Shown piece after piece: positions 11,321 to 51,872 of a DNA stretch of 64,000 nucleotides. The translations under genes were made by a program, and so were the position numbers. How positions within the stretch are numbered: position 1 is the first letter of the stretch; every line of letters begins with the position of its first letter. Origin of the DNA: a virus. The notes under the pieces were generated by a model. The model made no database searches. It was not told the DNA's origin and worked only from the letters and a program-made list of their open reading frames with translations. Location: IMG/VR virus record IMGVR_UViG_3300044632_000653, one strand, 5' to 3'.

Positions 11321-13504
11321 ATGAGCATCGACGGAGACCGTCAACTATCACAGTTCGTGTCAGACAGGCTCCCCGAGTTCGTGCGGGTCGATCACCCCAC
11401 GCTCGTCGCCTTCATGTCTGCGTACTACGAGTGGCTCGGTCTCCGCAGGGACAAGGGCAAGATCCTGTCCCCGCTCGACATGAAGGACATCCCCGACATT
11501 GATGTCACGCTCGACCAATTCGTTGACAAGTTCAAGAACGAGTACCTGCTCAACTTCCCCGAGTCGCTAGCCATCAATCCCGACACGGGGTATTTGGTAG
11601 ACCCGAGGAGGCTCGTCAAGAACATCAAGCAGTTCTATCTCGCCAAGGGAACCGAGAAGTCATACGAGTTCCTGTTCCGTATCCTCTACGACACGGCAGT
11701 CGAGTTCTACTACCCGAAGAAAGACATCCTCAGGCTGAGTACGGGAAGGTGGACGCAGAACAACTATCTGAGGCTGTCCAACGCCTTGGGTGATGGCATC
11801 TACAGGGCTGCGGGTAACACCGTGGTGCAGCGCAACTCCTCGGGACAGATACTCGCCACGGCGAGGTGTGTTGAGGTCAGCGTGTATCAGGTGGGAAACT
11901 TCGATGTCGCCGAGATGCTCATCACGGGAAGGAATGGAACATTCCAAGCGGGTAACCTCGGTATTGAGTTTACTGACGGCGAGGACACCCTCCGTGAAGT
12001 GAAGGTCTACAGCGTCATCTCTTCCATTTCCGTGACGAACGGTGGCTCGGACTATCAGGTCGGGGAGAAAGTCACCTTTGTCCCTGTGGGGAGCGACAGC
12101 GGTCAGCGGGGCACGGGGACGATCACCGAGGTGGACAGTCTCGGGGGCATCCGCAAGATCAACATCGATGACTTCGGCATCAACTATCAGGTTGCACCCA
12201 CGATCTCCATCGCCACTAGCAGGGGCACGGGCTTCTCGGGAACCGTGACCGTGGGGGCATTGGCTCAATCTGCGGGCTTCTACGCCAACAACGACGGTCG
12301 CCTCAGCACGAACAAGGTCCTTCAGGACAACAAGTACTACCAAAATTGGTCGTATGTCCTCAAGAGCGAAGTCGTTATTGACAGGTATAGGGAGGTGGTT
12401 CGCCGCCTCGTACACCCTGTGGGAACAGCAATGTTCGGTTCGGTGCTTATCAAGCGTTGCTCGCACGATGATCTCGCCAACGCATCCTCGGTCGCTAGGT
12501 ACGAGGTTCCGATCATCGGGCACTACATCCCGTACACATTCCATACCTTTGACGATCTCTCGGCATGGTTTATGACGGGGACAACGGGAGGGATGACTGC
12601 TGCGGGATACAAACCGTCGTTCCACGACATCTACATCAGGGGAGAGGGCGATGGCATCGTGATCGGAGGCAACCCGATCAGCAACAACATCCCCTTCGCC
12701 GCCACGGGTGGTGCGTTGGGTCTGACGGGATTCCAAAATGCCGACCCATTCTGGATCGTTTACACGCACCCAAACCGAAAGTTGAGCAACGAGAAGCACA
12801 TCGCCAAGATTTGGACAACCCAACTCGGCGATTTCCTCTCATGGGGGGAATGGGACCTTTCGGGGGATCCTGCCAACCAAGAACGGGTCAACACTTGGGT
12901 CAAGGAACTCACCGACAAGTTCGCCTCGGACGGAACACAGAACTCCTGCTGCAAGGGGTCCTGCTGCCGTGGCGAACTGTACAGGGAGCCGTATGACTTC
13001 AACTACGCACTCTTGAACTACAGCGAGGACAGCGAGTTCCGCAAGATCACCGCTCGGGCTTTCTTCAACATGCCCATCGGCGAGGTCTTCGACTGCCGCA
13101 CCGAGACATTCGTTTCTCCCGCTTCCCCGAGTTTCAGGATGATCCAACCGATTTCGGGAGGCACCGTCAGGAACACCTCCACTCCCATTGGAACATCACC
13201 CGCCGACTACGACTTCTTCAGGAACCTGACAGTCCGATTCGACATCGACAACGGCGACAACCTCTCGTTGGCGCAGATCGGGGCATCGAAGATCAGGGCT
13301 GTCTTGGACGGAAGGAAGACGGTCGATCTCGGTCTGAACGCACGAACGGTGGGCTTCAACAAGGTGCGTGACGGAAGACACTCCCTGCGACTCGACATAC
13401 TTGACTCGCAGGACCGCCTGATCGCAGGTACGAGGGAAATCGTCATCTTCGCCTATGAGTTCGTGCCCCCCTCACAGACAGAACTCCCATCACTAGAGGC
13501 ATAA
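11321..13504 (+). CDS. gp7: Baseplate wedge initiator (gp7-like)
   Basis: LPEFVR.DHP..VAF..AYYEWL, IKQFY.AKGTEKSY.FLFRILY, LQDN.YYQ.WSYVLKS, HPVG.AMFG. Confidence 0.85.
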   Translation: MSIDGDRQLSQFVSDRLPEFVRVDHPTLVAFMSAYYEWLGLRRDKGKILSPLDMKDIPDIDVTLDQFVDKFKNEYLLNFPESLAINPDTGYLVDPRRLVKNIKQFYLAKGTEKSYEFLFRILYDTAVEFYYPKKDILRLSTGRWTQNNYLRLSNALGDGIYRAAGNTVVQRNSSGQILATARCVEVSVYQVGNFDVAEMLITGRNGTFQAGNLGIEFTDGEDTLREVKVYSVISSISVTNGGSDYQVGEKVTFVPVGSDSGQRGTGTITEVDSLGGIRKINIDDFGINYQVAPTISIATSRGTGFSGTVTVGALAQSAGFYANNDGRLSTNKVLQDNKYYQNWSYVLKSEVVIDRYREVVRRLVHPVGTAMFGSVLIKRCSHDDLANASSVARYEVPIIGHYIPYTFHTFDDLSAWFMTGTTGGMTAAGYKPSFHDIYIRGEGDGIVIGGNPISNNIPFAATGGALGLTGFQNADPFWIVYTHPNRKLSNEKHIAKIWTTQLGDFLSWGEWDLSGDPANQERVNTWVKELTDKFASDGTQNSCCKGSCCRGELYREPYDFNYALLNYSEDSEFRKITARAFFNMPIGEVFDCRTETFVSPASPSFRMIQPISGGTVRNTSTPIGTSPADYDFFRNLTVRFDIDNGDNLSLAQIGASKIRAVLDGRKTVDLGLNARTVGFNKVRDGRHSLRLDILDSQDRLIAGTREIVIFAYEFVPPSQTELPSLEA

Positions 13505-13514
13505 GTACACCGCC

Positions 13515-15860
13515 ATGCCATCGTCTTGCGACCCATTCCGTCAAAATCACAAGCGAATCGCCGCCGATGCGCTGTTTGCCATCTACAGCGACACCGATGA
13601 CAAGAACCTGTTCCTGTCCATCGGCAAGATCACGGAATGGTCGGGTCTCGGTACCGACGAGGATCCGCCGTCGAGCATCGACAGCGTCAAGGACGATACC
13701 GAACTTTGGAGGGGCATCTTCGCCCACAAGAGGATCGACAGGTCGGATGTGTCCCTCGTCGTGCGAAGGTACGATTGGAAGCCGAGCGTCATCTACACGG
13801 CGTATCGGGATGACCTAGACCTGTTCGATGACTTCGACCCCGCTCCGTTCTATGTCCTCGTTGACGATGAGCGTGTGTACAAGTGCATCGACAACAACAA
13901 CCGTGCCCAATCCCTCGTCGCACCGACGCACACCGACAGCCAAATCCGCAAGTTGGGCGACGGATACCGTTGGAAGTTCCTCTATCAGATATCGGAGTCC
14001 AAGAGGAAGTTCCTGACGAAGACCCAAGGCGACTCCATTGGCTACATGCCCGTGGAGTATGTGGACTACCTGCGGCTCAATGACGAGCGCATCCTCCAAT
14101 GGAACACGCAGCAATCGGCTGTGGACGGGGAGATCGCTTTCGTCAGGGTGAGCCCCGATGTCAAGCCCTTCGTCGTGTCTGACACCTGCGTCTTTGCTAG
14201 TGCCAACAACACGGTCGTGGTGGATGTGGCTTTGGGGGCGACGGGAATCACCCTCACTTCACCCAATCTCATCCTCAAGCCGAACTATTACGACAACATG
14301 GTCCTGTCCATCGACAGCGGACAGGGTCAGGGACAGAGGAGAAGGATCTCCACCTTCACTCCATCGGGTGTGGGTGGTGCGGCATTCGTCACGGTGACGG
14401 ATCCCTTCTCGACTAGCGTCTCGGGTGGAGGCAACGCAAGCACCTTTTCCATCGTCCCGAACATCCGAGTGGTCGGCGACGGAACCTCTTACAGCAACTC
14501 GTACAACCCCTACGCCAAGGCTGCGGAGGTCTCGGTGCGCTTCGGTGCGACCGCAGACTTCAGCGTCGTTGGTGCCACCTCCTGCGCCGACTTCTTTGAA
14601 CTTCGCCGCCTCGTTGACTCCATCGAACTCGTTGACGGAGGAAGGGACTACACATTCGCCGACCTTGAGTTCGTCAAGGGACTCGTCGTTCCAACCGACA
14701 AGGTCTTCCTTGACGATCTCGCCGAGGCTGTGATGTCCCCACCTGGGGGTCATGGATCGAACCCCGTCAAGGAACTCGGATGCTCCTCCATAATGATCTC
14801 CAAGGAGTACTCTCAGGATGAGGAGGGGAAGGTCAGCACGGACAACGAGTACCGTCAGTTCTCAGTCATCCTCAACCCGCTCCTCGCCGAGAAGCAGGTG
14901 AGGCTGAAGTTCTTCGCCACGGGTGTCAGCGGATCATTCACGGTCGGGGCGACGGCGCAGCAATCGACCACAGGCGGATTCAGCGGTGCATACGGCGAGG
15001 TGGTCTCATGGAGGGCGGGTACCTCGGGTCACAGCGGCACGAACGAACTCGTACTCACGGAGATCAGGAACGGGGACTTTGAGTATGGCGGCAATGTCGG
15101 AGGACTGACAACGATGTCCGTCGATGTCCGAACCATCGCAGGTACGGAGTCGAGGAGGCTCCTCAGGCTGACCCTTTCTCCCACGGACCCCGCCTTCTCG
15201 GGCTCGGCGACGGACTTCACGAAGGGCTACCTCGTCCACGGTATCGGGGATTGGTCAACATCGACCAACGCTTCCCGTGCGGTCGGTGAGGTCCATGCGT
15301 GGGAGCCGCAGGTCGGATCGAACATCCTCGGCTTCCTCTACCTTGAGAATCCTCAGGGATCCTTCAAGGTCAACGAGCGTGTCTCGCAGACGGACCTCTT
15401 CTACTCGGGCTACAGCAAGGGACTCAGCGGAATAGGTCAGATCAAAGCAATCGACACAGTCATCAGGGAGGGCGTGGACACATACGACCAGACCACGACC
15501 CTTGTCATGTCCTACGACGGCAACAACCTGTTCAAGACCACCTCGTTCCTTGAGGATGCGTTCGAGGAATTCGTACTCGGTGCGACGGGCTCTGCGAACG
15601 GATATGTGATGGATTGGACCCTCGGGGGTACGGGAAGCACGGGAACTCTCAGGGTCTCGGGCACCCAAGGAACCTTCCGCACGGGAATGACCGCAGCATA
15701 CGGACTGACCACGGACATCAATACGGCGACCGTCACCCAAGTGGTACACACAGGCGAACTGAAGTACCGCTCGGGAGAGGTCCTATACATACAGAACATG
15801 AAGCCGATTCAGCGTGATCTTGAGCAACGAGAAGAGATCAAGATCGTCATCGACTTCTAA
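13515..15860 (+). CDS. gp8: Baseplate wedge subunit (gp8-like, enlarged)
   Basis: FYVL....VYKCIDNN, DGYRWKFLY.I, SPPGGHGSNP..ELG, SGEVLYI.N..PI.R...Q.EEIKIVIDF. Confidence 0.88.
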   Translation: MPSSCDPFRQNHKRIAADALFAIYSDTDDKNLFLSIGKITEWSGLGTDEDPPSSIDSVKDDTELWRGIFAHKRIDRSDVSLVVRRYDWKPSVIYTAYRDDLDLFDDFDPAPFYVLVDDERVYKCIDNNNRAQSLVAPTHTDSQIRKLGDGYRWKFLYQISESKRKFLTKTQGDSIGYMPVEYVDYLRLNDERILQWNTQQSAVDGEIAFVRVSPDVKPFVVSDTCVFASANNTVVVDVALGATGITLTSPNLILKPNYYDNMVLSIDSGQGQGQRRRISTFTPSGVGGAAFVTVTDPFSTSVSGGGNASTFSIVPNIRVVGDGTSYSNSYNPYAKAAEVSVRFGATADFSVVGATSCADFFELRRLVDSIELVDGGRDYTFADLEFVKGLVVPTDKVFLDDLAEAVMSPPGGHGSNPVKELGCSSIMISKEYSQDEEGKVSTDNEYRQFSVILNPLLAEKQVRLKFFATGVSGSFTVGATAQQSTTGGFSGAYGEVVSWRAGTSGHSGTNELVLTEIRNGDFEYGGNVGGLTTMSVDVRTIAGTESRRLLRLTLSPTDPAFSGSATDFTKGYLVHGIGDWSTSTNASRAVGEVHAWEPQVGSNILGFLYLENPQGSFKVNERVSQTDLFYSGYSKGLSGIGQIKAIDTVIREGVDTYDQTTTLVMSYDGNNLFKTTSFLEDAFEEFVLGATGSANGYVMDWTLGGTGSTGTLRVSGTQGTFRTGMTAAYGLTTDINTATVTQVVHTGELKYRSGEVLYIQNMKPIQRDLEQREEIKIVIDF

Positions 15861-15869
15861 GGTGAACAG

Positions 15870-18800
15870 ATGGGCTCATACGACTCAAGCATCTTCAATG
15901 TCGATCCGTACTACGACGATTTCTCGGAGGACAAGAAGTTCCTCCGACTCATGTTTCGTCCAGGCTACGGAGTCCAAGCGAGGGAACTGACTCAGGTTCA
16001 GACGATCCTACAGAATCAGATTGAGCGTTTTGGGTCTCACATCTTCGATGAGGGAAGCATCGTTCTCGACGGAAGGATCAGCGAGAACAGGGTCAAGTAT
16101 GCCAAGGTAGCCCTCGGCACCACGGTCGATCACACGGACTTCATCGGCACGGTGGCGCAGGTCTCGGGCAAGGCGAATGCGAGGATCATCCACGCCGAGG
16201 ACATCCTTGAGGACTCGGGAGACGAGTACAGCGTCCTGTTCTTCGACTACATGGACGGCGGCACGACTTTCGGGATCAACGACACGATCACGGCTACGGC
16301 TGCGAACGGAACGGGGATCACCGCAGGTATCACGGGTCCCGCAATCGGCGGTGTTGTCGGAGACGCAATCGTTGTCTCGGTAGAGCGTGGCGTTCGCTTC
16401 GTGGAGGGGTACTTCGTACTCAACACGGCGCAGTCTCTCGGTGCCTACACCCTCACGGGAGCCACGGGTTCGCAGGTGAGGCTCTACAACTCCCCGACTA
16501 CGAGCATCGGCTTCTCGGTGGACAAGACCTTCGTCACCGCCGAGGATGACACCACCCTCAACGATCCTGCTTTCGGCTTCTACAACTACGCCGCACCTGG
16601 CAGCGACCGATTCAAGATCGACCTCACCCTCTCGCAGAAGAACTTCTCACCGAGCGACACCTCGTCCATCGACAACTTCAGCCGAGTCGGCTTCATTGAG
16701 TTCATGCGGATCGATGACGGCGACATCGTCAAGGTCGAGAGGTATCCCGACTACGCCATGCTTGAGGATACCCTCGCAAGGCGCACCTACGACGAGTCGG
16801 GGAACTACACGGTGGTTCCGTTTGAACTCAACCTCAAGGGTCCGACCGCCGTCAGCGGGACCGCTGTCCTGAAGGCTGAACTGTCCACGGGCAAGGCTTA
16901 TGTCTTCGGATATGAGTTTGAGACGCAGAGCAAGACCAAGTTGAACCTCCCGTGCGCCCGTGGGGGTGCGCACCTGCGCACGGTCGAGCGTGACTTCAAC
17001 CGCTCGGTCGGTCCATACACCCGAGTCGTGTTCTCGGGCGTGGCAGACTCCATCGGTGCGACCACCGACTTCGCCAAGCATCCGACCGTGCATCTCTCGA
17101 CGGGAGAGAGCGGTGCCGCTTTCGCATCAATCGGAACGGCGAGGGTCCGTTGGTTGGAGCCGTACTCCCCTCCCGTCTACAACCTCTCGCTGTACGACAT
17201 CAACATCACGGGACCGACCGCCGAGTTCACGGATGTCAAGCGCATCTTCTTCCCGAGCCTCACGGCTGCGGGTAAGCATGCGTTTGCGATCACGGGAAGC
17301 GCAGGTCTACAGAGCGAAAGCCAAGGGCTCCTTCTCTATCAGGTGCCCGAGGGTTCGGGCGTGACGGCATTTACGGATGCCAACTACGCAATCACGACAT
17401 ACAAGACGCAGACCGCATCCTCCCTGCCTCACTCGTTCACGGTCAACGCCGTCTCGGGTCTTGAGTTCGCCGTTGGAACCTCGGAGGTCAGCCTTCCCAA
17501 CGAGAACATCTTGGTCTTCGATCAGGACGGCAAGGTCGTGGGTGGCACGGCGGCGAGGGACGGCAGCAATCCCGCAGTCCTCTCAATCACGGTCTCATCG
17601 AATACGAGCAGCGGCAAGAAACTGCACATCATCTCCACCGAGGATGTCTCGCAGTCGCCGATGACGAGCCGCACGAAGACTTTGCAGACGGTGAGCCTCA
17701 CGCTCACGGGTCAATGGGGATCCTCGTTGACGGGAGACGGTCGTGGAACCACGGCTGACACCCTGTATCTGAATGGATACACCGATGTCCTCCAAGTCCT
17801 TTCCCTCACGGGAACGAAGGGTGCAAGCAGCGGCATCAGCATCCTGCCCTTTATGAACTTCGATGACGGTCAGCGTGATGCCCTCTATGACTGGTCGAGG
17901 ATGTGGATGACGGCGGGTGTCACGGGTATCACGGGTCCGTTCTATGCCACCTTCCGCCACTACAGCCACAGCGCAACCGATGGTCCGTTCACGGTCAAGT
18001 CGTATCCCAACTACGAGGACATCCCCTCGTACACCAGCCGCACCACGGGAACCGTCTACAGCCTCCGTGACTGCATCGACTTCCGTCCCGTGAGGAACAC
18101 GGACGGCACGATCAAGACTAACACATGGGTCCCGACGAACACCGCCGCCAACGACAACAACTTTGAGTACACCCACCACCTCCCGAGGACGGACAAGATC
18201 GTCCTCACACGGGACAGGAGGTTCTCCGTCCTCTCGGGCGTTCCGTCGCTGAATGCGGACATCCCCGCCGACGATCCGAACGCCATGTCGCTCTACATCG
18301 TGCGGATGAATCCGTACACCTTCTCGGCTGACGATGCCTCCATTCGTTATGTCGAGAACAAGAGGTACACGATGCGTGACATCGGCGACCTTGAGAAGAG
18401 GATCGAAGCAGTCGAGTACTACACCACCCTCAGCCTCCTTGAGCAGGAGGCGAAGGCGAAGAAAGTCCTTGACGATGCGGGTGACGAGATGCCGAAGAAG
18501 GGCATCCTCGTTGATCAGTTCAAGGGACACACCGTCGCCGACAACACCGATCCCATGTTCGCCGCAAGCATCGACTACGAGAGGAACGAACTCCGTCCTC
18601 CGTTCACGATCAGGTCCTATGGACTCACGGCAGGATCTCTGTCGAATGTGGTGGGCAACCTCACGGACGGGGTCTACACGCTCAACTTCACCCAATCTCC
18701 CGAGATCTCCCATCTCCTGTCGAGCGAGTCCGTGGTGGTCAATCCGTCCACGATCATCTCCTTCCTCGGCACTCTGAAGGTCTCTCCCTCCACCGACACT

Positions 18801-20813
18801 TGGTTCGACACGGAGAAGCAGCCCAAGGTCAGGGTGAATGTCGAGGGAGAGAACGACAATTGGGAGCAGAACCCGAACTACGGTTTCGGCACCCGCTACA
18901 ACGATTGGGAGGCTATTTGGTTCGGGCGTGAGAACGCCAACGAGAAAAACACCAAGCCGAACCTCGTCCGCAACAGGCTCCTCACCGCCAAGGTGGAGGG
19001 GATCTCCCTGTCGAGCATCAACTCGTCGGTGACCCCCGAGAGCATGAAGAAGGTCGTGCGGAACAAGACCGTGGCTAGGGATGTCCTCCCTGTCGCTCGT
19101 CGGAGGACGCTGACCCTCAGCGCAACGGGTCTCAAGCCAAGCACCGCCTACCGTGTCTACTGCGACGATGTCGATGTGACCGCTTACTGCACCTCTGCAA
19201 GTGCGTCCACCGACACCAAGGGACGGGCGACCATCTTCTTCTCGTTCAACGCAGCGCAAGTGCTGCCATACGCCGATCAGAACTTCCTCATCGGACGGCA
19301 CACGATCAGGGTGACTGACGGTACCAATGCCGAGGATCCCTCGGCTTGGACCATGCTTGCGGAGGCGACCTACACCGTCGAGGGCGCATACGACTCGGTG
19401 AGCGAGGAAGGAATCCTCTCCACCCGTGTGCCCGAGACCCGTCGCAAGTCGGTGAAGTCGGACAAGATCGTGTCGAACCTCTCGGAGGTGCTTACGAGTT
19501 CGGGCGAGATCCGAGGCTACAACGACCCCCTCAGCCAAACGATCTACATCGATCCCGTCAAGTATCCGAGGGGCGTGTTCGTCAAGTCGGTGGACCTTTA
19601 CTTCTCGGATAAGGAATCCCTCACCACGGTCCCCGTGACCGTTCAGATCCGTCCGACGATCTCGGGATACCCCCACCCGTCGAAGGTCCTTCCTTTCGCC
19701 ACCTCCACGCTCTACTCGGACGATGTCTCCACCGCCGACCTGATCACGGCAGGTAACGATAACGAGACCAACTTCCCGTTCACCACCCCCGTGTATCTCC
19801 TACCCGCCCGTGAATATGCCATCTGCCTGTCTACGAACAGTCCGAATTACTCGGTGTTCACGGGCACCATCGGTAGCACGATTCTCAGGCAGTCCGAGGA
19901 GGATGACAAGGTCTCCGTGACCAAGCAGCCGATGATGCGCTCCCTGTTCAAGGCTAGCAACAGCGGCAACCTCGTCAGGAACGACAATCAGACTCTTGCC
20001 GTCAGGCTCAACCTGTGCAAGTTCACCTCGTCGGGAAACATGACGGTCGAGAACGAGGCATACTCGGGCTCTGCGACGATGACCGTGAACGAGTTCAGGT
20101 TCAACGCTACCGACTTCGTGCCCGAGGGATCGGACATCTCGTACTCGGCATCCATAGCCACCAGTTCTCCGACGATATACACGGAGATCCCCGTTGGTAA
20201 GAACATCGTGCCGAGCAATGGGTATCTCGACCTTCTCGGTGCGAATGCGGAAGCAGGATTCGGAACCTTTACTGTTTCCATGTCCGCAAGCACGGACGGA
20301 TATGTCTCTCCCGTGTTCGACATGGAAAGGTCGAGCGTCATCTCGGCTACCAACCTCGTCAACAACAGCATCATCACCACCATCGGGGACTCGGCGTACA
20401 ACGGCGAGATCGAACCCACGAACTCCGCTGCGGGTGAAGCCTACAAGACAAAGGCTAGGTACATCACGAAGAAGGTGACGCTTGAGGAGGGTGCCGAAGC
20501 CGAGAACATCACGGTGACGCTCTCCCTCTGCAATCCGAGGAAGGGCAACTCCACCGCTGCGAGTGTGCAGGTCTTTGTCCGTCCGATTCCTGTCGGCGAG
20601 GTCGATTTCGACAACACCAACTATGTCAAGTTGACCACCACGGATACGGGGGTGTCCACCTCCGACGATGACTTCCGTGAGGTCACCTTCACGAACATCG
20701 GCAGCAGCACCTTGAGCAAGTTCAAGACCTTCTCCATCAAGATCGTCATGTACGGCGAGACCAACGGCTCCGCAATCCCGAGGATCAGGAACTTGAGGGT
20801 CATCGCTACATGA
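15870..20813 (+). CDS. Large virion structural protein, VrlC / DUF4815-like
   Basis: NV.PYYDDF...K.F.R..FRPG..VQARELTQ.Q.ILQNQIE.FG, APG.DR, LARRT.DESG.Y, NKRYTMRDIG.LEKRI..EYYT.LSLLE, P.I.NLR.IA end. Confidence 0.9.
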   Translation: MGSYDSSIFNVDPYYDDFSEDKKFLRLMFRPGYGVQARELTQVQTILQNQIERFGSHIFDEGSIVLDGRISENRVKYAKVALGTTVDHTDFIGTVAQVSGKANARIIHAEDILEDSGDEYSVLFFDYMDGGTTFGINDTITATAANGTGITAGITGPAIGGVVGDAIVVSVERGVRFVEGYFVLNTAQSLGAYTLTGATGSQVRLYNSPTTSIGFSVDKTFVTAEDDTTLNDPAFGFYNYAAPGSDRFKIDLTLSQKNFSPSDTSSIDNFSRVGFIEFMRIDDGDIVKVERYPDYAMLEDTLARRTYDESGNYTVVPFELNLKGPTAVSGTAVLKAELSTGKAYVFGYEFETQSKTKLNLPCARGGAHLRTVERDFNRSVGPYTRVVFSGVADSIGATTDFAKHPTVHLSTGESGAAFASIGTARVRWLEPYSPPVYNLSLYDINITGPTAEFTDVKRIFFPSLTAAGKHAFAITGSAGLQSESQGLLLYQVPEGSGVTAFTDANYAITTYKTQTASSLPHSFTVNAVSGLEFAVGTSEVSLPNENILVFDQDGKVVGGTAARDGSNPAVLSITVSSNTSSGKKLHIISTEDVSQSPMTSRTKTLQTVSLTLTGQWGSSLTGDGRGTTADTLYLNGYTDVLQVLSLTGTKGASSGISILPFMNFDDGQRDALYDWSRMWMTAGVTGITGPFYATFRHYSHSATDGPFTVKSYPNYEDIPSYTSRTTGTVYSLRDCIDFRPVRNTDGTIKTNTWVPTNTAANDNNFEYTHHLPRTDKIVLTRDRRFSVLSGVPSLNADIPADDPNAMSLYIVRMNPYTFSADDASIRYVENKRYTMRDIGDLEKRIEAVEYYTTLSLLEQEAKAKKVLDDAGDEMPKKGILVDQFKGHTVADNTDPMFAASIDYERNELRPPFTIRSYGLTAGSLSNVVGNLTDGVYTLNFTQSPEISHLLSSESVVVNPSTIISFLGTLKVSPSTDTWFDTEKQPKVRVNVEGENDNWEQNPNYGFGTRYNDWEAIWFGRENANEKNTKPNLVRNRLLTAKVEGISLSSINSSVTPESMKKVVRNKTVARDVLPVARRRTLTLSATGLKPSTAYRVYCDDVDVTAYCTSASASTDTKGRATIFFSFNAAQVLPYADQNFLIGRHTIRVTDGTNAEDPSAWTMLAEATYTVEGAYDSVSEEGILSTRVPETRRKSVKSDKIVSNLSEVLTSSGEIRGYNDPLSQTIYIDPVKYPRGVFVKSVDLYFSDKESLTTVPVTVQIRPTISGYPHPSKVLPFATSTLYSDDVSTADLITAGNDNETNFPFTTPVYLLPAREYAICLSTNSPNYSVFTGTIGSTILRQSEEDDKVSVTKQPMMRSLFKASNSGNLVRNDNQTLAVRLNLCKFTSSGNMTVENEAYSGSATMTVNEFRFNATDFVPEGSDISYSASIATSSPTIYTEIPVGKNIVPSNGYLDLLGANAEAGFGTFTVSMSASTDGYVSPVFDMERSSVISATNLVNNSIITTIGDSAYNGEIEPTNSAAGEAYKTKARYITKKVTLEEGAEAENITVTLSLCNPRKGNSTAASVQVFVRPIPVGEVDFDNTNYVKLTTTDTGVSTSDDDFREVTFTNIGSSTLSKFKTFSIKIVMYGETNGSAIPRIRNLRVIAT

Positions 20814-21022: not shown

Positions 21023-24000
21023 ATGTCTTGTACAGCCTCAGACTTCGTCAACATCCAACCTCTGACCCTGTCGGACACCTTCAACACATGGTTCGACAGG
21101 ACGAATGAGGTCATCTCCGCTGCGAATGGGATCAACATCCTTGATGTGGCGGTCGGAGGCACGGCAGGTGGTCTTCTCCGTGAGACGGGATGCTCGGCGG
21201 GGTACTACAACGGCGTTGTGACTCTGTCCGTCAATCCTGGAGCGGGAATCGGCATCGGCAATGTTGCTTTCGGCACCAACTTCAACAAGGTGGTGATCGA
21301 TGCGGTTCAACTTGAGAACCTCGGGACGGGTGCGACGGCGAATCCTGCTGTCGGCGACTACATCATCGTCAGCGACATCAGCGACACAAGGCAGGGATCG
21401 GCGGGAACCCCGAAGAGGACGGTGGCGAGCAGGATGCTTCCCCCCGCAGTCTACTTCGGCGATGCGGGTGAAGGCACATTTGAGATCTACGGCGATGTCA
21501 CCATCCACGGCGACATCAACATCGAAGGCGATCAGTCGTACATCGATGCGAACGACTTGCGGATCGAAGACAAGATCATCGAACTCGCATACAACAGGTA
21601 CTCGCAGTTCACCATCCAAAAGACGGGAATGACTGCGGGATCTGTCGATGTCGGTGCGACCGCCTACTACATTGACCCTGGATCCGCCACCCTCACGGCG
21701 AACTCGACCACCATCGGCTACATCCGAGCGTTCACCTACTCGGGAAGCACCACGGGTTCGGTGCAGATGCACTCGTTCAACGAGGGCGGGGTGTCCGACA
21801 TCGTCAACGGCGGCAGTCTCTATGTGGACGGTGCATCGCTGACCTTCGGTGTCGTTTCCACACCCGTCACCGACACGGCGTTCTACAACGATACGCTCCT
21901 GACCCCCGCAGGAATCGACATCAAGGGCGCATCAGGCGACAAGACATTCCTTTGGAACCTCAAGACCCCCGACACGCTCTCGACATGGAACGCCTTCGTT
22001 GCGAACACCAACCTCGGCGTGACGGGTGCGGACAACTACATCATCTCGTCCAAGTTCGCATCGTTCGGATACGGCGCAGGTACGGATGACACCTACACCT
22101 TCTATGGCTCGGGCGACTCGTTCACCAAGGCTGCGGTCGGAACGGAATTCGTCCTTCAGCACAGCGCAACGGGTGCAGCGGGAATCACCTTCGCACAGGT
22201 GTTCTCGGGAAGCACGGGACCCGCAGTCTATCCTGGGGTCACGGCGACCAACTGGTCCAAGTACCTCAACGCCGACCAACTCGACGGTGCCCACGCACTC
22301 ACCACCTCGACTGCATGGTCGATCCCCGTGGCACTCGCCAACGGTAAGATCCATGAGGATTGGGTCAACTCCGATGCGATCCGCAAGACCTTCTCGCAGA
22401 CGGGTCACTCGTTCGTCATGGGTGACATCCTGCGGTTCGACACGAACGGATCGCTGACCTTCGCCCGTGCCGATACCATCCCCACCGCCGAGGCACTCGG
22501 CATGGTCGAGGTCGCCTCGGGTAGCACCCTCACCCTCGTCACTAAGGGCTTCATCTCGGGGCTCACGGGTACGAGGATCAACGCACTCAAGCCTCTCGTC
22601 ACGGGCAACGCCTACTACCTCAGTCAGTCTGTTGGTGGAGGCATGATCGCTAATCCCGACTCGGGCGCATACGAGATCACGGCAGGTCAGGTCCGAAAGG
22701 CGATGTTCATCGCATCGGGCATTGACAAGGGATATGTCGTAAACTACACGGGCGTGGTTGTCGGCAGCGATCCCACGGACCTGATCTACCTCAACCGTGT
22801 GGTCCCCGTGGGAACGGTGCATCCGTTCTCGGGAGTTACAGCCGCCATTCCCGATGGATGGCTCATCTGCGACGGTGCCGCCATCTCGCAGAACGAGGAG
22901 CCCGATCTCTTCGCAGCGATTGAAAACAACTACTACGCCGAGGCTGAGGTCTACAACTCCTCGACCTTCACATTGGATGCGGATACGAGGGGACTCGCAA
23001 TCGGCGACGGACTCCGTGTCGTTTGGGCGACGGGTAGTGCGAATGTCCTGATCACAAGCGTCAACAGCGTCAACAGGAGGGTCGAGGTCTCCTCAAGTTC
23101 CTTCTCCTCGTTGGCTGAAGGGACCGACCTCAAGGTCTACGGAAGGACCATCCCGTCCACCTCGGGACGATCAATCTTCTTCATCCCCGATCTCAGGCGG
23201 CGCACGGTCTTCGGCACCTCCTCGGGCGAAGGCATCGCAGGTAGCGAGACGATCACTCCCGCCCTCGCACAGGGAACCATCGGAGGCGAGAGCCAAGTCA
23301 CCCTTGGCGCAAGCAACATCCCCCCGCACACGCACACGCTCGACACCCTCGTCACGAACAATCCGTTCAGCAACGCATACGGATCCTCCACGAACGAGAC
23401 GGGCGGCTTGGTGGAGACGGGTGTCTCGCCGAGCCCGTTCAGCATCCTCCCCCCGCACTTGGTGATGCACTACATCATCCGTGCGAAGAAGGGAACATCA
23501 GCCACGGTCCTCACGGGGCACGACCACGACAACTTCTACATCAGGTACGACAAGGCTCACACATTGGCTGCGGGTGCAAGCAGGACCCTCACCGATGCGG
23601 ACAGGACTCAGTTCCGAGCGAACGCCAAGGTGCTTCGGAACGATGGGGACGATGTGTTCGGCGGGAAACTCACGGTCACGGGAGATCTCGTCGTTGGTGG
23701 TCTCGGTGGCACGGACAGCGTGGACCTGATCGTCAGCGGAGGAATGAGTGCGGACTTCGTGAACGCCAACCGTGCGTTCATCAACGAGTCGGCTGTCATC
23801 GACCTCGCAAGCGGACAGGCACTCAACATCACGGGAGCATCCAACAGCATCGTGAGGATGTTCCCCGCATTGAACTACGGCTTGACGGGCGGCAGCAGGT
23901 TCTACGATCAGAATCAAAGGGATTCCGACAGCCGAAACCTCGTCGTTGACTACAAGACGGGAGAGGTGACATGCCGCCCGATGTTCAATGTGTCCTCAAG

Positions 24001-24568
24001 CAGTCCTCCTGCGTCCACCGTTGGATATGCCGAGGGCTTCGTTTGGTACACCACGGGAACGGGTAATGCGAGTAGTGGGGGTGGCGGTGGCGGTGGATCG
24101 ATTGCCGATTCCATCACATATTTCAGCGATGCAAGTACACCGTTTAGGGAATGGGTATGGAGCGGAGGTTTTCCTGGAGGCGGAACACCCCCTCCGACAA
24201 CCACTAGAGGGTTTCAGATCCTCACCGATCAAGATGTTCCTCTTACCGCCAAGTTTGCATACATCACGGTGGAGGGGACTATGATCGGTCGTTCGGGCGC
24301 AATAAACCTCAAGATGTGGGCAGGGAGAAATGGTACTCCTGCAAACTTGAACAAGGGTCATTTGATCTTTGATTTTGTTGACTCCACCAACGATTCAAAC
24401 AGTTCAAATCAGAGGCATTGTTACCTTTCTCCTTCGGTGCTTGTCCCTCTTGTGGTGAACGGAGGAAACATCGGTTTCTTCTTCAACTTCCAAGAGGTTA
24501 CTCAAGAACTCGGTTCCAACAATGATGTGTCCTTCAGAGTGAGTTTGCGCTTGGACGGCTACTTCTGA
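21023..24568 (+). CDS. Tail fibre protein with split tail-collar domain
   Basis: SDTFN.W..RTNE N-terminus; IEDKIIEL; collar motifs PVGTVHPFSG..PDGWLICDG and FFIPDLRRR..FG; NIPPHTH; divergent C-terminal tip. Confidence 0.85.
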   Translation: MSCTASDFVNIQPLTLSDTFNTWFDRTNEVISAANGINILDVAVGGTAGGLLRETGCSAGYYNGVVTLSVNPGAGIGIGNVAFGTNFNKVVIDAVQLENLGTGATANPAVGDYIIVSDISDTRQGSAGTPKRTVASRMLPPAVYFGDAGEGTFEIYGDVTIHGDINIEGDQSYIDANDLRIEDKIIELAYNRYSQFTIQKTGMTAGSVDVGATAYYIDPGSATLTANSTTIGYIRAFTYSGSTTGSVQMHSFNEGGVSDIVNGGSLYVDGASLTFGVVSTPVTDTAFYNDTLLTPAGIDIKGASGDKTFLWNLKTPDTLSTWNAFVANTNLGVTGADNYIISSKFASFGYGAGTDDTYTFYGSGDSFTKAAVGTEFVLQHSATGAAGITFAQVFSGSTGPAVYPGVTATNWSKYLNADQLDGAHALTTSTAWSIPVALANGKIHEDWVNSDAIRKTFSQTGHSFVMGDILRFDTNGSLTFARADTIPTAEALGMVEVASGSTLTLVTKGFISGLTGTRINALKPLVTGNAYYLSQSVGGGMIANPDSGAYEITAGQVRKAMFIASGIDKGYVVNYTGVVVGSDPTDLIYLNRVVPVGTVHPFSGVTAAIPDGWLICDGAAISQNEEPDLFAAIENNYYAEAEVYNSSTFTLDADTRGLAIGDGLRVVWATGSANVLITSVNSVNRRVEVSSSSFSSLAEGTDLKVYGRTIPSTSGRSIFFIPDLRRRTVFGTSSGEGIAGSETITPALAQGTIGGESQVTLGASNIPPHTHTLDTLVTNNPFSNAYGSSTNETGGLVETGVSPSPFSILPPHLVMHYIIRAKKGTSATVLTGHDHDNFYIRYDKAHTLAAGASRTLTDADRTQFRANAKVLRNDGDDVFGGKLTVTGDLVVGGLGGTDSVDLIVSGGMSADFVNANRAFINESAVIDLASGQALNITGASNSIVRMFPALNYGLTGGSRFYDQNQRDSDSRNLVVDYKTGEVTCRPMFNVSSSSPPASTVGYAEGFVWYTTGTGNASSGGGGGGGSIADSITYFSDASTPFREWVWSGGFPGGGTPPPTTTRGFQILTDQDVPLTAKFAYITVEGTMIGRSGAINLKMWAGRNGTPANLNKGHLIFDFVDSTNDSNSSNQRHCYLSPSVLVPLVVNGGNIGFFFNFQEVTQELGSNNDVSFRVSLRLDGYF

Positions 24569-25788: not shown

Positions 25789-25865
25789 TTCATAGGGTTT
25801 TCGGAGGATCCCCGTCAGAGACTCCATAGATACGGGCACAACCCGATTTGTAATGGAGATCTGAA

Positions 25866-27068
25866 ATGAGCGAAGCATTGACGATTGAAGCACCCGCTGC
25901 CCCTGTTTCGGCAGAAACCTCAGTCACCGCACCCAACAAGCACAAGAGGCTCACCCTCTGCATGATCGTGAAGAACGAGGCGCATGTCATCGAAAGGTGC
26001 CTCGCCTCGGTCCTGCCCGTCATCGACTACTGGGTCATCGTGGATACGGGATCGACTGATGGAACTCAGCAGAAGATCCAAGACTTCTTCGACCGAAACG
26101 GCATCGATGGCGAAATCCACAACCGACCGTGGATCGACTTCGGTCACAACCGCAGCGAGGCTCTTGAACTCGCACAGAAGACCGACACGGACTACGCCCT
26201 GATGATCGATGCGGACGAGATCCTCGTCTTCGATCCAGGTTTTGATCCCGTGGCGTTCAAGGACAGCCTCACCGCCGACCTGTACAACATTTTCGCACAG
26301 TTCGGTCAGACCCGATACCACCGTCCTCAGTTGACGAGCAACAAGAAGCGGTTCTACTACCGTGGCGTTCTCCATGAGTATGTGGATTGCCACGACCCGA
26401 TTGGAACCCGTGATTTTGCTCGTGGGTTTATGAACACGCCGATCCAAGACGGTGCCCGTTCGTCCGACCCGCAGAAGTACGCCAAGGATGCGGTGAAGTT
26501 TGAGGAAGCCCTCGCATCGGGCAAGGTCGAGGAGAAGGACTTCAACCGCTATCACTTCTACATGGCGCAGTCGTACCGTGACTCGCAGCAATGGGAGAAG
26601 TCCCTTGAGGCTTACCTCAGGAGGGCTGACCTCGGCGGTTGGAACGAGGAGGTCTTCTACTCGCTTTATCAGGCGGGTCGGATCATGGAGATCCTTGAGA
26701 AGCCTGTGGACAACATCATCCAAGTCTACTTCAAGGCGTACCAAACCGCCCCTTGGAGGGCAGAGAGCCTGTGGGCTGCGGCACGACTCTGCCGTTCGTT
26801 CAGCCGATTCGACCAAGGCTACAGGTTCGTCAAGCAAGGTCTCAAGATCCGCTATCCCGAGGGTGCCCTCTTCGTCGGTCAGGGGATCTACGATTGGGCA
26901 CTCCTTGACGAGTTCGCCATCGCCGCATATTGGACGGGGAACCACCGTGAGTCGAGGATCGCTTCGATCCAACTGCTCAAGGAAGGCAAGTTCCCTCCCG
27001 ATCAGAAGGATCGCATCGAAGCAAACCTCAAGTTTGCATCGGAGTCGCTCCTCAACGAAGCCGAGTGA
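25866..27068 (+). CDS. GT2-family glycosyltransferase with C-terminal TPR-like helices (SunS/GmaR-like architecture)
   Basis: LCMIVKNEA.VIERCL.SV, IVDTGSTDGT, DFGHNR, DADE (DxD), GVLHE; TPR-like repeats; own TAGATA late element at 25827-25832. Confidence 0.9.
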   Translation: MSEALTIEAPAAPVSAETSVTAPNKHKRLTLCMIVKNEAHVIERCLASVLPVIDYWVIVDTGSTDGTQQKIQDFFDRNGIDGEIHNRPWIDFGHNRSEALELAQKTDTDYALMIDADEILVFDPGFDPVAFKDSLTADLYNIFAQFGQTRYHRPQLTSNKKRFYYRGVLHEYVDCHDPIGTRDFARGFMNTPIQDGARSSDPQKYAKDAVKFEEALASGKVEEKDFNRYHFYMAQSYRDSQQWEKSLEAYLRRADLGGWNEEVFYSLYQAGRIMEILEKPVDNIIQVYFKAYQTAPWRAESLWAAARLCRSFSRFDQGYRFVKQGLKIRYPEGALFVGQGIYDWALLDEFAIAAYWTGNHRESRIASIQLLKEGKFPPDQKDRIEANLKFASESLLNEAE

Positions 27069-44515: not shown

Positions 44516-45877
44516 ATGGAACTGACGATTTCCGAGGCCCTTCAGAAGAAGTGGCAACCCATCCTTGAACACGCTGACTTGCAGCCGATCAAGGACCCGT
44601 ACCGCAAGGCGGTTACGACCATGCTCCTTGAGAATCAGGAGCAGTACCTCCGTGAGGCTGCGCCCACCAACTTCAGCGGTGCTGCCACCATTGGTCAGGA
44701 AAGCGGCGGCAATGTGGCTCGTTGGGACCCGATCCTGATCAGCCTCGTTCGTCGTGCGATGCCGAACCTCATCGCCTACGACATCTGCGGCGTTCAGCCG
44801 ATGAGCGGTCCTACGGGACTTATCTTCGCCATGCGCAGCCGCTACATCAATCAGACGGGTCCTGAGGCTCTCTACCAAGAGGCTGACACCGCTTTCGGTG
44901 GCTCGGGCTCGACGGGTGCGACGGCTCAAGGCAACTACAACACCGATCCGTTTGAGATCAGCGGTGTGGATCCGTTCGGCTCGGGCACCCTCGCTCAGGC
45001 GACGGGCGTGAAGGGCACTAAGGGCTTCAGCACCTACGGCGGTGAAGCCCTCGGCGACTCGGCGAACAATCCGTTCCCGCAGATGGCATTCAGCATTGAG
45101 AAGACCACGGTCGAAGCGAAGACCCGTGCCCTCAAGGCTGAGTACACGATGGAACTCGCACAGGATCTCAAGGCGATCCACGGTCTCGACGCTGAGACGG
45201 AACTCGCCAACATCCTGTCGAGCGAAATCCTCGCCGAGATCAACCGTGAGGTCGTTCGTGTCATCTACGCCAACGCCAAGTTGGGTGCGAAGAGCGGCAC
45301 GACCCAAACCACGGGTGTCTTCGACCTCAATGTCGATTCCAACGGTCGTTGGAGCGTTGAGAAGTTCAAGGGTCTCCTCTTCCAGATTGAGCGTGAGTGC
45401 AATCAGATCGCCAAGGAAACCCGCCGTGGCAAGGGCAACTTCATCGTCTGCTCGTCGGATGTCGCCTCGGCTCTGTCGATGGCGGGTGTCCTCGACTACG
45501 CCCCTGCCCTCAGCACGAACCTCAATGTGGATGACACGGGCAACACCTTCGCAGGTGTCCTCAACGGCAAGTTGCGTGTGTACATCGATCCGTACTCGTC
45601 CATGACCACCTCGCATGACTTCTTCATGGCGGGTTACAAGGGCTCGTCGGCTTACGATGCGGGTATGTTCTACTGCCCGTATGTGCCGCTGCAAATGGTC
45701 CGTGCGGTCGGTGAGCAGTCCTTCCAGCCGAAGATCGGCTTCAAGACTCGCTACGGCTTGGTCAACAATCCGTTTGCGACGATCAACAACGGTTTGTCGG
45801 TGGCTGACCCCTACGACACCAATGCGACCCGCAAGAACATCTACTACCGCATCGTCAAGGTCACGAACCTCTTCTGA
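44516..45877 (+). CDS. gp23: Major capsid protein
   Basis: DPILISLVRRAMPNLIAYDICGVQPMSGPTGLIFAMRSRY, RALKAEYT.ELAQDLKAIHGLDAE.EL.NILS.EI, FQPKIGFKTRYG. Confidence 0.99.
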   Translation: MELTISEALQKKWQPILEHADLQPIKDPYRKAVTTMLLENQEQYLREAAPTNFSGAATIGQESGGNVARWDPILISLVRRAMPNLIAYDICGVQPMSGPTGLIFAMRSRYINQTGPEALYQEADTAFGGSGSTGATAQGNYNTDPFEISGVDPFGSGTLAQATGVKGTKGFSTYGGEALGDSANNPFPQMAFSIEKTTVEAKTRALKAEYTMELAQDLKAIHGLDAETELANILSSEILAEINREVVRVIYANAKLGAKSGTTQTTGVFDLNVDSNGRWSVEKFKGLLFQIERECNQIAKETRRGKGNFIVCSSDVASALSMAGVLDYAPALSTNLNVDDTGNTFAGVLNGKLRVYIDPYSSMTTSHDFFMAGYKGSSAYDAGMFYCPYVPLQMVRAVGEQSFQPKIGFKTRYGLVNNPFATINNGLSVADPYDTNATRKNIYYRIVKVTNLF

Positions 45878-48903: not shown

Positions 48904-48933
48904 TTCTTTCCTCCGATGGGATTGCGGCGTTCG

Positions 48934-49410: not shown

Positions 49411-49416
49411 GTATCA

Positions 49417-49445: not shown

Positions 49446-49467
49446 GTGGTTTGGGGAAGTTCCCCAT

Positions 49468-49578: not shown

Positions 49579-49585
49579 GACTGTT

Positions 49586-49612
49586 ACATCGACCGTATTG
49601 ATTATGCCTTTA
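49586..49612 (-). promoter_or_regulatory. Sigma28 (FliA/WhiG)-like promoter TAAA-N15-GTCGATGT
   Basis: Matches the TAAA-N15-GCCGATAA architecture; similar copies at 54045-54071 and 62058-62084. Confidence 0.5.
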
Positions 49613-49647
49613 GTCGGAGGTGGGAAAATTCCCGAAATCACCTGCGA

Positions 49648-49932: not shown

Positions 49933-49939
49933 GGGATGC

Positions 49940-50986
49940 TCAGTAGATGATGCCGCCTGTACTGACCATGCAATTATCGGACACAAACATCGCCTGTGCA
50001 AGAGTCTTCATGTTGTACGAAGGTTGCCATCCGAGGATGAGACGGGCTCGGGTCGAGTCGCCGAGGAGATATGGCACCTCGTTCGGACGGAACAGCCTCG
50101 GGTCGATGATGACATACTTTTCCCATGAGCCGAGATCCGCAGCGGAGAACACCTCGTCAAGGAACTCACGGACGGTGTATGTCTCTCCCGTAGCGATCAC
50201 ATAGTCGCTCGGAATGTCCTGTTGGAGCATGAGCCACATGGCATGCACATAGTCCGCTGCATGTCCCCAATCACGCTTTGCGTCGAGGTTGCCAAGACGG
50301 AGGTTCCTCTGAAGCCCGTGCTTGATCCTCGCAGCCGCCATCGTGATCTTGCGGGTGACGAAGGTCTCCCCACGGCGTGGACTCTCATGGTTGAACAGGA
50401 TGCCGCATGAGGCATGGATTCCATAAGCCTTGCGGTATGTCTGCACCATCTGATGGGCATACACCTTGGCGACGGCATACGGCGAGACGGGTTGCAGCGG
50501 GGACTGTTCGTTGAATCCCATCGGGCTCGTCGGGACCGAGTCGCCGAACATCTCCGAGGATGACGCTTGATACAGCCTCGTCTGCGGGGAGATCGTCCTG
50601 ATGGCGTTGAGGATGTTCAGGGTGCCGTTGCAGATGCCGTCCGAGGTGTACTCGGGGAGTTCAAACGAGACTGCGACATGGCTCTGTGCGGCGAGGTTGT
50701 AGACCTCGTCAACCTCGTACTCCATGAGGATGTTGGAGATGCAGGATCCGTCGTGCAGGTCGTAGTACTTGAGGATGAACCTCGGATCGTTCGTGAGGTG
50801 ATCGATCCTTCCCGTCGAGATGGTGGATGTCCTCCGCTTCAAGCCGATGACGGTGTAGCCCTTGCGGAGGAGGAGTTCGCTGAGGTACGAGCCGTCCTGA
50901 CCGTTCACGCCCGTGATGACGGCGGTCTTTCCGTTCGGGACGGGATCGGCGTTACTTGCGGATGGAGTCGTAGTTGCTTCTGACAT
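49940..50986 (-). CDS. gmd: GDP-mannose 4,6-dehydratase
   Basis: ITGVNGQDGSYLSELLL.KGY, YNLAAQSHVAVSF, YQASSSEMFG, P.SPYAVAK, GILFNHESPRRGETFVTRKIT, LGNLDAKRDWGHA.DYV. Confidence 0.98.
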   Translation of the reverse strand: MSEATTTPSASNADPVPNGKTAVITGVNGQDGSYLSELLLRKGYTVIGLKRRTSTISTGRIDHLTNDPRFILKYYDLHDGSCISNILMEYEVDEVYNLAAQSHVAVSFELPEYTSDGICNGTLNILNAIRTISPQTRLYQASSSEMFGDSVPTSPMGFNEQSPLQPVSPYAVAKVYAHQMVQTYRKAYGIHASCGILFNHESPRRGETFVTRKITMAAARIKHGLQRNLRLGNLDAKRDWGHAADYVHAMWLMLQQDIPSDYVIATGETYTVREFLDEVFSAADLGSWEKYVIIDPRLFRPNEVPYLLGDSTRARLILGWQPSYNMKTLAQAMFVSDNCMVSTGGIIY

Positions 50987-51872
50987 GGTCGCAGGTTTCC
51001 TTGATGGCTGTCTTGATGTCGGTGAAATTGAAGTCGGGGTACGCCGCTCGGAACCTTGAGTTGTCCGTGGGCTTTCGGTATATGCCTTCGGGCATGTCCG
51101 TTTGGAAGACGATCTCGCCGTCGAATTCCATGGCTTCGGCGATCATCCAAACGATGTCCTTGATCCTGTACTCCTGAGACGGAGATACGATCATCTCTGT
51201 CGGCACGGACTCACGGTTGTCGGAGTGGATCGTGGTCAGGGCTCTTGCGATGTCGGGTGCGTACACGAATTCACGCAACGCATCTCCCGAACCCCACACG
51301 GCAAAGGGCGTTCTTTCCCTCTTGGCGAGGTAGCACTTGTGGATGAGGCTCGGGATGACATGCCCGTGCATGCAGTTGTAGTTGTCGTTCTTGCCGAAGA
51401 CATTGCAGGGGATCACGCATCGGACCTGCATGCTGCGGTCCTTGCGGAGGCATCGGGCACCGACCTCAAGCATCCTCTTGGCATAGGCATAGCCGAAGTT
51501 GGTGTGGTGCGGTTCGCCGAGGTGGAGGCTGTCCTCCGTGAGCGGATACTGAACCTGCGTGGGGAAGACGCAGGTCGAGAGTACGAATGTTGCGGAGTTC
51601 AGCAAAAACTCCCCGCAGACACGCATCACATTGGCGTTGATGGAGAGGTTGTTGCTGAAGAACTCAAAGGAGTGGCGGTCGTTCGCACGGACACCTCCGA
51701 CCGTGGCGGCAAGGTGGATGACCTCGCTGATCTCGTTGTCGGCGACGAACTCACGCAGTTGCCTGTAGTCGAGGAGATTGAGTTCCCTTGATGTGGGGGC
51801 GAGTGCGTATCCCGAAGGAATCTCGCTGCCGATCAGCCCGTGACCTCCCGTGATGAGGACATGCCTGTTCAT
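50952..51872 (-). CDS. fcl: GDP-L-fucose synthase (GDP-4-keto-6-deoxymannose epimerase/reductase)
   Basis: TGGHGLIGS, HLAA.VGG..AN, STCVFP, N.GYAYAKR, P.N.FG..DN......HVIP.LI.K, WGSG...REF.Y. Confidence 0.95.
   Translation of the reverse strand: MNRHVLITGGHGLIGSEIPSGYALAPTSRELNLLDYRQLREFVADNEISEVIHLAATVGGVRANDRHSFEFFSNNLSINANVMRVCGEFLLNSATFVLSTCVFPTQVQYPLTEDSLHLGEPHHTNFGYAYAKRMLEVGARCLRKDRSMQVRCVIPCNVFGKNDNYNCMHGHVIPSLIHKCYLAKRERTPFAVWGSGDALREFVYAPDIARALTTIHSDNRESVPTEMIVSPSQEYRIKDIVWMIAEAMEFDGEIVFQTDMPEGIYRKPTDNSRFRAAYPDFNFTDIKTAIKETCDHVRSNYDSIRK

Follow-up and report, generated by a model that had tools for sequence, protein, structure and literature searches.

The 64,000-nucleotide (nt) stretch of IMG/VR record IMGVR_UViG_3300044632_000653 that we analysed (the window) belongs to a T4-like myovirus and encodes, between two tail fibre genes, a glycosyltransferase (GT) whose nearest characterised relatives attach sugars to proteins or peptides. 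The outward-facing virion proteins of the same phage carry a short tetrapeptide, G-x-T-[AG] (x or a dot, any residue), several times more often than their composition predicts. We lean, with slightly better than even confidence, to the reading that the enzyme glycosylates proteins at O-linked positions in the manner of SgtA, and that selection has placed its acceptor tetrapeptide in exposed loops and tails across most of the outer virion proteins; on sequence grounds the virion is probably sugar-coated, which could serve shielding, stability or adhesion. The more sweeping proposition, namely that a G-(small/hydrophobic)-T-(G/A) sequon arose from collagen-like repeats and was spread by selection over nearly every outward-facing virion protein within a deep T4-like clade that is widespread in the environment, we hold to be an even call.

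Counted against the expectation from each protein's own composition, the proteins of the late module contain 69 G-x-T-[AG] sites where 17.4 are expected, and 57 where 16.6 are expected once the collagen-like stretch of one tail fibre is left out. Within this module, G.TA (31 vs 7.4, p 7.5e-11) and G.TG (26 vs 8.9, p 2e-6) are, in that order, the two leading patterns among the full set of 8000 of the form a-x-b-c. The excess persists under shuffling in blocks of 10 to 100 residues (z 7.7 to 10, with 10-residue blocks at 7.7). A first-pass annotation of the window had listed the motif instance by instance as a candidate threonine glycosylation site; every listed instance is present, its absence from gp17, gp20 and gp21 is confirmed, and its recurrence now stands above the composition-based expectation (57 vs 16.6). 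Patterns that keep only part of the motif, either with another residue after the threonine (G.T[^AG], 0.92x) or with another residue in place of the glycine ([^G].T[AG], 1.09x), are both at expectation, so the three motif positions are jointly constrained. Across 270 pooled sites, position x favours A, M, I, L and V, with D at 0, E at 0.2x and K at 0.1x; K and R fall to 0.1-0.2x just after the motif, and charge is depleted around it. A DNA-level motif was rejected because the corresponding DNA pattern is frame-specific, occurring 57 times in frame against 2-10 times in other frames. An artefact of composition or low complexity was rejected on the block shuffles and on masking of the collagen stretch, and paralogous repeats swelling the count were rejected because no similar paralogous flanks exist among the 57 sites.

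The distribution of the motif over the particle is strongly uneven. With virion proteins sorted into outer and inner by established knowledge of the T4 structure, the outward-facing proteins hold 52 sites against 11.06 expected (p 5e-19), whereas the inner-baseplate, tube, portal, protease, scaffold and terminase proteins, counted together with the GT, have 2 (3.06 expected); unassigned late open reading frames (ORFs) contribute 3 (2.39 expected), and genes outside the late module, ORF 56477-57868 left out, another 3 (2.13 expected). This agrees with the earlier claim that the motif sits in exposed virion proteins, often in loops. Within individual proteins (Table 1), both gp14 hits come after the conserved portion, on the C-terminal side of the PHROG match (1-196), and all gp15 hits fall in a C-terminal extension beyond the conserved residues 2-221. 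Only residues 5-84 and 332-626 of gp18 align to solved T4-type sheaths, which places its sites in variable outer domains; an AlphaFold (AF2) model puts five of these six sites into coil, and four of the six in segments with a predicted local distance difference test score (pLDDT) below 50. In gp23, the sequence GSTGATA (131-137) is inside residues 113-176, which have no aligned counterpart in T4 gp23 and occupy the position of the insertion domain. In tail fibre 2, 12 hits come from a collagen-like run of G-x-T (residues about 449-506, nt 28462-28635) and four more are dispersed, and the hits of the small fibre-associated protein upstream of the GT recur in its orthologues in two near-complete relatives, G002 and G003.

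The motif excess is also seen in GT-bearing relatives. The GT was found in 131 IMG/VR contigs, and 80 of these loci were fetched for motif counts: in 73 (L002-L074, 55-94% identity) the gene lies in the fibre region, and in seven low-GC loci of about 50% identity it lies among non-structural genes. The plus-strand ORFs of the 80 loci, whose GC content is mostly 37-59%, contain 1364 motifs against 367.5 expected, with a 2-7x excess in almost every locus. In G002, G003 and G004, three relatives with near-complete genomes, an excess of 2.4-5.9x is found only in the structural and fibre bins, the replication and metabolism bins being at about 0.8-1.0x, and the extra motif-rich ORFs are tail-fibre or virion proteins by PHROG. 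G.TG is the top pattern of 8000 in the distant GT-bearing G004, G003 and L057+L066, where S.TG takes second or third place. Two fibre-like proteins of G003 that are very large and rich in G and T, of 2841 aa (165699-174221, locus L177) and 1086 aa (2-3259), have no motif excess (15 vs 16.4 and 6 vs 6.0), so enrichment is not universal among the fibre proteins of the clade.

Relatives that lack the GT look different. No motif excess is seen in the GT-less Pelagibacter phage HTVC008M (31 vs 25.5) or in 15 loci without GT at the syntenic position (135 vs 101.7, about 1.3x), and G.TG shows none in the pooled GT-less clade (61 vs 72). A general property of T4-like structural proteins was rejected for G.TG on these three comparisons, with a G.TA background remaining (see below). 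The first-pass annotation had suggested a test of the co-occurrence of motif, GT and gmd/fcl: motif and GT occur together, within one clade, and gmd is common in GT-less cyanophages. The gp18 orthologues of the GT-bearing clade keep 2-7 sites, always in variable domains, in alignment columns that differ between subclades, and GT-less orthologues have 0-3; such turnover of sites with kept numbers counts against simple inheritance. Taken together, these comparisons support the motif as genuine, as restricted to virion proteins that are exposed, and as specific to the clade that has the GT.

Turning to the enzyme itself, the GT matches phrog_13126 over its full length and has a GT2-type GT-A domain with a DxD motif of the metal/nucleotide kind, D115-x-D117-E118 being invariant in 20 homologues. 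In its AF2 model, built on 20 homologues (pLDDT 89), the GT-A domain takes up residues 29-192, with a pLDDT above 90, and precedes ten paired helices (residues 202-399). In Foldseek searches with this model, SunS and ThuS (PDB 7MSN, 7MSK) come first (E 1e-14 to 1e-12, template modelling score (TM) 0.57-0.60, about 390 columns); its C-terminal half is matched by consensus tetratricopeptide repeat (TPR) proteins and by the TPRs of GmaR and OGT, and the cell-wall GTs RmlT, TarP and TarS match only the catalytic half. The TPR part proposed in the first-pass annotation is therefore upheld by model and fold search, although Pfam models detect no TPR in the protein. By sequence, the closest solved relative is GmaR (PDB 22AO, 7X9R; E 1.6e-8), whose match covers the GT-A domain and includes common LxxxIVKNE...VDTGSTD motifs, ahead of ThuS (6e-4), with SunS also matched. 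The best characterised sequence relative is SgtA (BLASTP E 2e-22, 28% identity over 240 residues). The NCBIfam SunS equivalog model TIGR04195 gives 27.7 bits against a cut-off of 350, and the GT is not a SunS equivalog. A protein of the acceptor type is encoded beside the enzyme, tail fibre 2 starting 50 nt downstream; Collar domains and tail-fibre PHROGs on both sides confirm the position between two fibre genes that had been reported. Sequence and model together support membership of the GT in the protein- or peptide-glycosylating GT-A plus TPR group formed by SgtA, GmaR and SunS/ThuS.

What this family acts on elsewhere is informative for the choice of substrate. SgtA of Clostridioides difficile is a 358-aa GT-A plus TPR enzyme, encoded directly upstream of bclA3, that adds beta-O-linked N-acetylglucosamine (GlcNAc) in a Mn-dependent reaction to Thr in BclA3 peptides, with uridine diphosphate (UDP)-GlcNAc as the only donor used (PMC7157674). 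Its acceptor peptides include AGLIGPTGATGV and TGATGLIGPTGATGA, which contain G-x-T-G sites, and the acceptor repeats of BclA3 are GPTG/GATG (PMC7157674). For the alignment to the window GT, sgtA was recovered from a metagenome contig via the published cloning primer, and the ORF downstream of the recovered gene, which yields the 358-aa product, is BclA3. A scan of one genome per bacterial species returned more than 590 GT homologues (42-51% identity), spread over Alphaproteobacteria, methanotrophs, Verrucomicrobia, Acidobacteria, Myxococcota, Chlamydiia and further groups. Of the 80 bacterial loci kept, 27 encode a collagen-like protein (Pfam Collagen) within 4 kb of the homologue; about 85% of the triplets of these neighbours are G-x-T, and one of them reaches 342 motif hits. 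G-x-T collagen-like proteins are thus the likely substrate class of this bacterial GT-A/TPR family. The link with collagen-like G-x-T fibres is further supported by the unrelated jumbo phage Tunturi_5, in which 3.7 kb separate a GT homologue from a tail fibre whose collagen repeats contain 66 G-x-T-G hits. Fusion of the bacterial GT to GT25 and Anp1-like domains is frequent, an arrangement to be expected if the glycan is extended; no GT25 domains were found in the phage relatives. Homologues in Mesorhizobium (L222:3992-6793) and Bradyrhizobium (L217:1892-7573) are parts of 930-1900-aa fusions with Anp1-like and GT25 domains, to which the Bradyrhizobium protein adds N-terminal TPRs and a GDSL lipase domain. 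Both fusions adjoin collagen-like proteins whose N-terminal domain is DUF4347 and which contain over 100 G-x-T triplets, and these loci look like an undescribed bacterial glycoprotein system.

Based on these observations, we propose that the gene product would be a late-expressed protein O-glycosyltransferase of the SgtA/GmaR/SunS type, in which the TPR-like domain would bind the acceptor and the GT-A domain would catalyse transfer. Acting in the cytoplasm during assembly, it would place a sugar, most likely a hexose or N-acetylhexosamine (HexNAc) from a UDP-sugar donor, onto the Thr of G-x-T-[GA], in acceptors whose x is small or hydrophobic and never acidic and whose surroundings are poor in charge. 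The ancestral substrate would have been the collagen-like G-x-T stretch of the adjoining fibre, as in the bacterial and Tunturi_5 homologues. In a deep T4-like clade, selection would have carried the tetrapeptide into flexible loops and into C-terminal extensions on most outward-facing proteins (gp7, gp8, VrlC, the two fibres, gp14, gp15, gp18 in its outer domains and the capsid protein in its insertion region), and the outcome would be a dispersed glycan coat.

Several observations weigh against this proposal. In a gp15 tree, all 39 GT-bearing loci and 12 short contigs, every one with an elevated ratio, fall on one side of a well-supported branch and every GT-less locus on the opposite side; the association thus has one origin, is not replicated within the T4-likes and, with GT and motif coinciding once, leaves lineage history inseparable from cause. 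Independent contrasts inside the T4-likes were ruled out for the same reason. In the pooled GT-less clade G.TA is itself elevated (104 vs 54.7, 1.9x), so part of the G.TA signal may be generic or a pooling effect. The third gp23 hit, GPTG (98-101), lies in a conserved QPMxxPTG segment and may be incidental, and single hits occur in gp48 and the small terminase gp16; hits at such places mean that not every instance can be a site. Ser is accepted by SgtA in vitro, yet G.S[AG] shows no clear enrichment here (25 vs 16.2, ranks 335 and 681 of 8000). Finally, G005 (GC 27%) and the megaphage loci L292 and L293 have the GT, with no G-x-T-rich neighbours within 10-12 kb of it and no clear motif excess.

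The single origin and the G.TA background would equally suit a narrower reading in which the GT modifies only the collagen-like G-x-T stretches of fibres and the dispersed tetrapeptides have another cause, either a different clade-specific modifying enzyme or a lineage-inherited preference for forming loops. In addition, every experimentally or syntenically supported substrate of the family consists of collagen-like repeats. We nevertheless regard this restriction to collagen as unlikely: the dispersed motif matches the collagen acceptors residue for residue (G-x-T-G/A), is confined to exposed parts of unrelated proteins and changes position while its density is kept; G.TG ranks first of 8000 only in the GT-bearing clade; and the window yielded no other candidate enzyme.

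Phage sugar genes are usually assumed to act on non-virion targets. Applied here, this would make the motif an unmodified structural or folding feature and the GT an enzyme for host envelope polysaccharide, lipopolysaccharide or a host protein, an option that strikes us as quite improbable. The closest relatives by fold and sequence are protein or peptide GTs, with cell-wall GTs matching the GT-A half only; the gene lies inside the fibre module throughout the clade; and its bacterial homologues adjoin G-x-T collagen-like proteins. A merely structural motif, moreover, is not expected in low-confidence loops that move between subclades. What speaks for a target outside the virion is the PHROG label of the GT family ('beta-1,4-glycosyltransferase', in the category of morons and auxiliary metabolic genes), the presence in the window of gmd and an fcl-like gene, which are typical of cell-surface sugar pathways, and the position of the GT among non-structural genes in G005 and the megaphages.

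As to the sugar, the first-pass annotation had described a complete gmd+fcl pair for guanosine diphosphate (GDP)-L-fucose and a coat possibly containing fucose. The gmd half of the pair is solid, its product falling 3 bits under the TIGR01472 cut-off, and the corresponding step of the GDP-L-fucose pathway is present. The neighbouring gene encodes a short-chain dehydrogenase/reductase (SDR) that scores 169.4 bits with NF047922 against a cut-off of 500, well below the equivalog level, and its product sugar is uncertain. The two genes overlap by 35 nt (50952-50986, minus strand), consistent with translational coupling. A coat of L-fucose made by the phage's Gmd and Fcl and attached by the GT would be in keeping with the adjacency of the two genes and their synteny in G002; in G003, gmd stands beside a small second GT2, and a GDP-sugar could feed extension in some relatives. 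Still, we consider such a fucose coat very improbable. Besides the low Fcl score, gmd occurs in 86 phage records, mostly cyanophages without GT; in G004, which has both GT and motif, no gmd was found (the record is 72% complete); neither a fucosyltransferase family nor any further GT is present among the window ORFs; and SgtA used only UDP-GlcNAc (PMC7157674). The characterised relatives use UDP-GlcNAc or UDP-Glc, and the proposed link to fucose is weak. As separate observations, G002 (112-128 kb) and G003 (130-146 kb) contain islands of about 15 sugar-pathway-like ORFs (SDRs, small GT2s) that have no counterpart in the window, the G003 island including a gmd copy followed by a 201-aa GT2, which would make glycan extension with a GDP-derived sugar possible in some members.

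The window (GC about 57%) is assigned to a Kyanoviridae-type phage by its collinear plus-strand late module (1480-48197), in which PHROG and Pfam assignments give the T4-like order gp48, gp53, gp5, PAAR, gp25, gp6, gp7-like, gp8-like, VrlC/DUF4815, two fibres and gp13-gp23. In the major capsid protein, identity to Methylophilales phage Melnitz, HTVC008M and cyanomyoviruses is no more than 60-63%. The phage collection contains no near-identical record, and the nearest one, G001, is a 14-kb fragment from which the GT is absent. The canonical T4 late promoter TATAAATA occurs nowhere in the window. CTAAATA(C/G) lies upstream of the late genes 1480, 25447, 27118, 35583 and 44516, gp19, gp21 and gp22 are preceded by (A/T)ACATAA, and gp7 and the GT have ATAGATA, the variant CCATAGATAC being common to both. 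The late-type element earlier ascribed to the GT can thus be kept as a possible variant, not as a canonical T4 promoter.

Three further groups of ORFs deserve mention. ORF 56477-57868 is a lone plus-strand ORF among minus-strand early genes, rich in G (15.6%) and T (11.7%), and is a candidate virion or fibre protein, so far unrecognised, whose gene stands apart from the late module. Directly upstream of that module, a 165-aa ORF (964-1461, minus strand) has a TnsA-like endonuclease N-terminal domain (PF08722, E 1.4e-23) and is possibly a homing-type or mobile nuclease. Two small minus-strand ORFs, 51869-52444 and 61536-62033, have weak matches to sigma-70 region 4 or helix-turn-helix models (E 2.5e-3 and 3e-5, respectively) and are possible phage transcription regulators; the former is directly downstream (in window coordinates) of the fcl-like gene and in the same orientation.

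Table 1. Features of the window; hits are G-x-T-[AG] matches, with the composition-based expectation after "vs".
Feature	Position (nt)	Strand	Remarks
gp7-like baseplate wedge protein	11321-13504	+	3 hits vs 0.68
gp8-like baseplate wedge protein	13515-15860	+	7 hits vs 1.0
VrlC/DUF4815 giant structural protein	15870-20813	+	11 hits vs 1.9
Tail fibre 1	21023-24568	+	Collar domain, tail-fibre PHROGs; 10 hits vs 3.1
Fibre-associated protein, 113 aa	25447-25788	+	PHROG 'L-shaped tail fiber assembly'; 3 hits vs 0.22
Possible late-promoter variant CCATAGATAC	25823-25833	+	33 nt upstream of GT start
GT, SgtA/GmaR/SunS-type	25866-27068	+	400 aa; GT2 domain PF00535 (E 1.4e-9), PF13704
Tail fibre 2	27118-30429	+	Pfam Collar and Collagen, tail-fibre PHROGs; directly downstream of GT
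gp14 neck protein	31621-32514	+	2 hits, residues 205, 244
gp15 tail sheath stabiliser	32518-33369	+	3 hits, residues 245, 258, 280
gp18 tail sheath	35583-37469	+	6 hits vs 0.64, all in residues 96-313
gp18 loop peptide ARGFTGGTAADS	within 35583-37469	+	motif-bearing
gp23 major capsid protein	44516-45877	+	3 hits
GDP-mannose 4,6-dehydratase (gmd)	49940-50986	-	PF16363 E 2.6e-120; TIGR01472 412.2 bits vs cut-off 415
SDR epimerase/reductase (fcl-like)	50952-51872	-	PF01370 E 4e-38; best match GDP-L-fucose synthase
G/T-rich ORF, 463 aa	56477-57868	+	no Pfam or PHROG match; 7 hits vs 1.75

If our reading is correct, a single phage enzyme would lay a sequon-directed glycan coat on a tailed phage, a counterpart to the sequon-based glycan shields of enveloped animal viruses. 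Candidate sites could then be read from sequence, making glycosylation predictable throughout a large uncultured clade (the 131 contigs above), and the common practice of taking phage sugar genes for 'auxiliary' ones that act on the host surface would have to be reconsidered. It would also offer a testable model for the masking or stabilising of exposed phage proteins, and a compact enzyme-plus-tag pair for site-directed O-glycosylation in bacteria.

Among known systems, the closest likeness is to SgtA-BclA3, which shares with the window the order of GT-A domain and TPRs, a length of about 360-400 aa, a position beside a surface-fibre gene with collagen-like G-x-T repeats, and acceptor tetrapeptides, GPTG and GATG, that equal the motif. 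Unlike the window enzyme, SgtA is bacterial and serves one spore-surface protein with all sites within long collagen repeats, whereas the window GT is phage-encoded and is associated with a short collagen stretch and mostly isolated tetrapeptides in the loops of about ten unrelated virion proteins. SunS and ThuS share the fold over the full length, with GT-A domain and helical repeats for peptide recognition, but are only 14-16% identical to the GT; SunS is encoded by the SPbeta prophage, and its target is a Cys in a single secreted bacteriocin instead of structural proteins. The Listeria monocytogenes enzyme GmaR, matched in its GT-A domain by sequence and in its TPRs by fold, is a flagellin O-GlcNAc transferase that acts on Ser/Thr of a surface filament protein; it is longer than the GT and doubles as an anti-repressor, and flagellin is not known to have a G-x-T sequon. 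Glycosylated virions are documented for few phages only, with no short acceptor motif known for them. In mycobacteriophages, Freeman and co-workers (2023, cited in PMC12801897) reportedly found that phage GTs modify the phages' own capsid and tail proteins at C-terminal extensions, which compare with the gp14 and gp15 extensions described here. Those phages are siphoviruses of Actinobacteria whose GT families differ, and they are not known to have a defined short sequon. Full-text literature searches returned no description of phage virion glycosylation with a GT-A/TPR enzyme or a G-x-T motif. The enzyme type with its G-x-T acceptor is thus known from bacterial spore fibres, and virion glycosylation from mycobacteriophages; what appears to be new is a phage-encoded member of the enzyme group tied to a short, dispersed sequon across the virion surface in a large uncultured clade.

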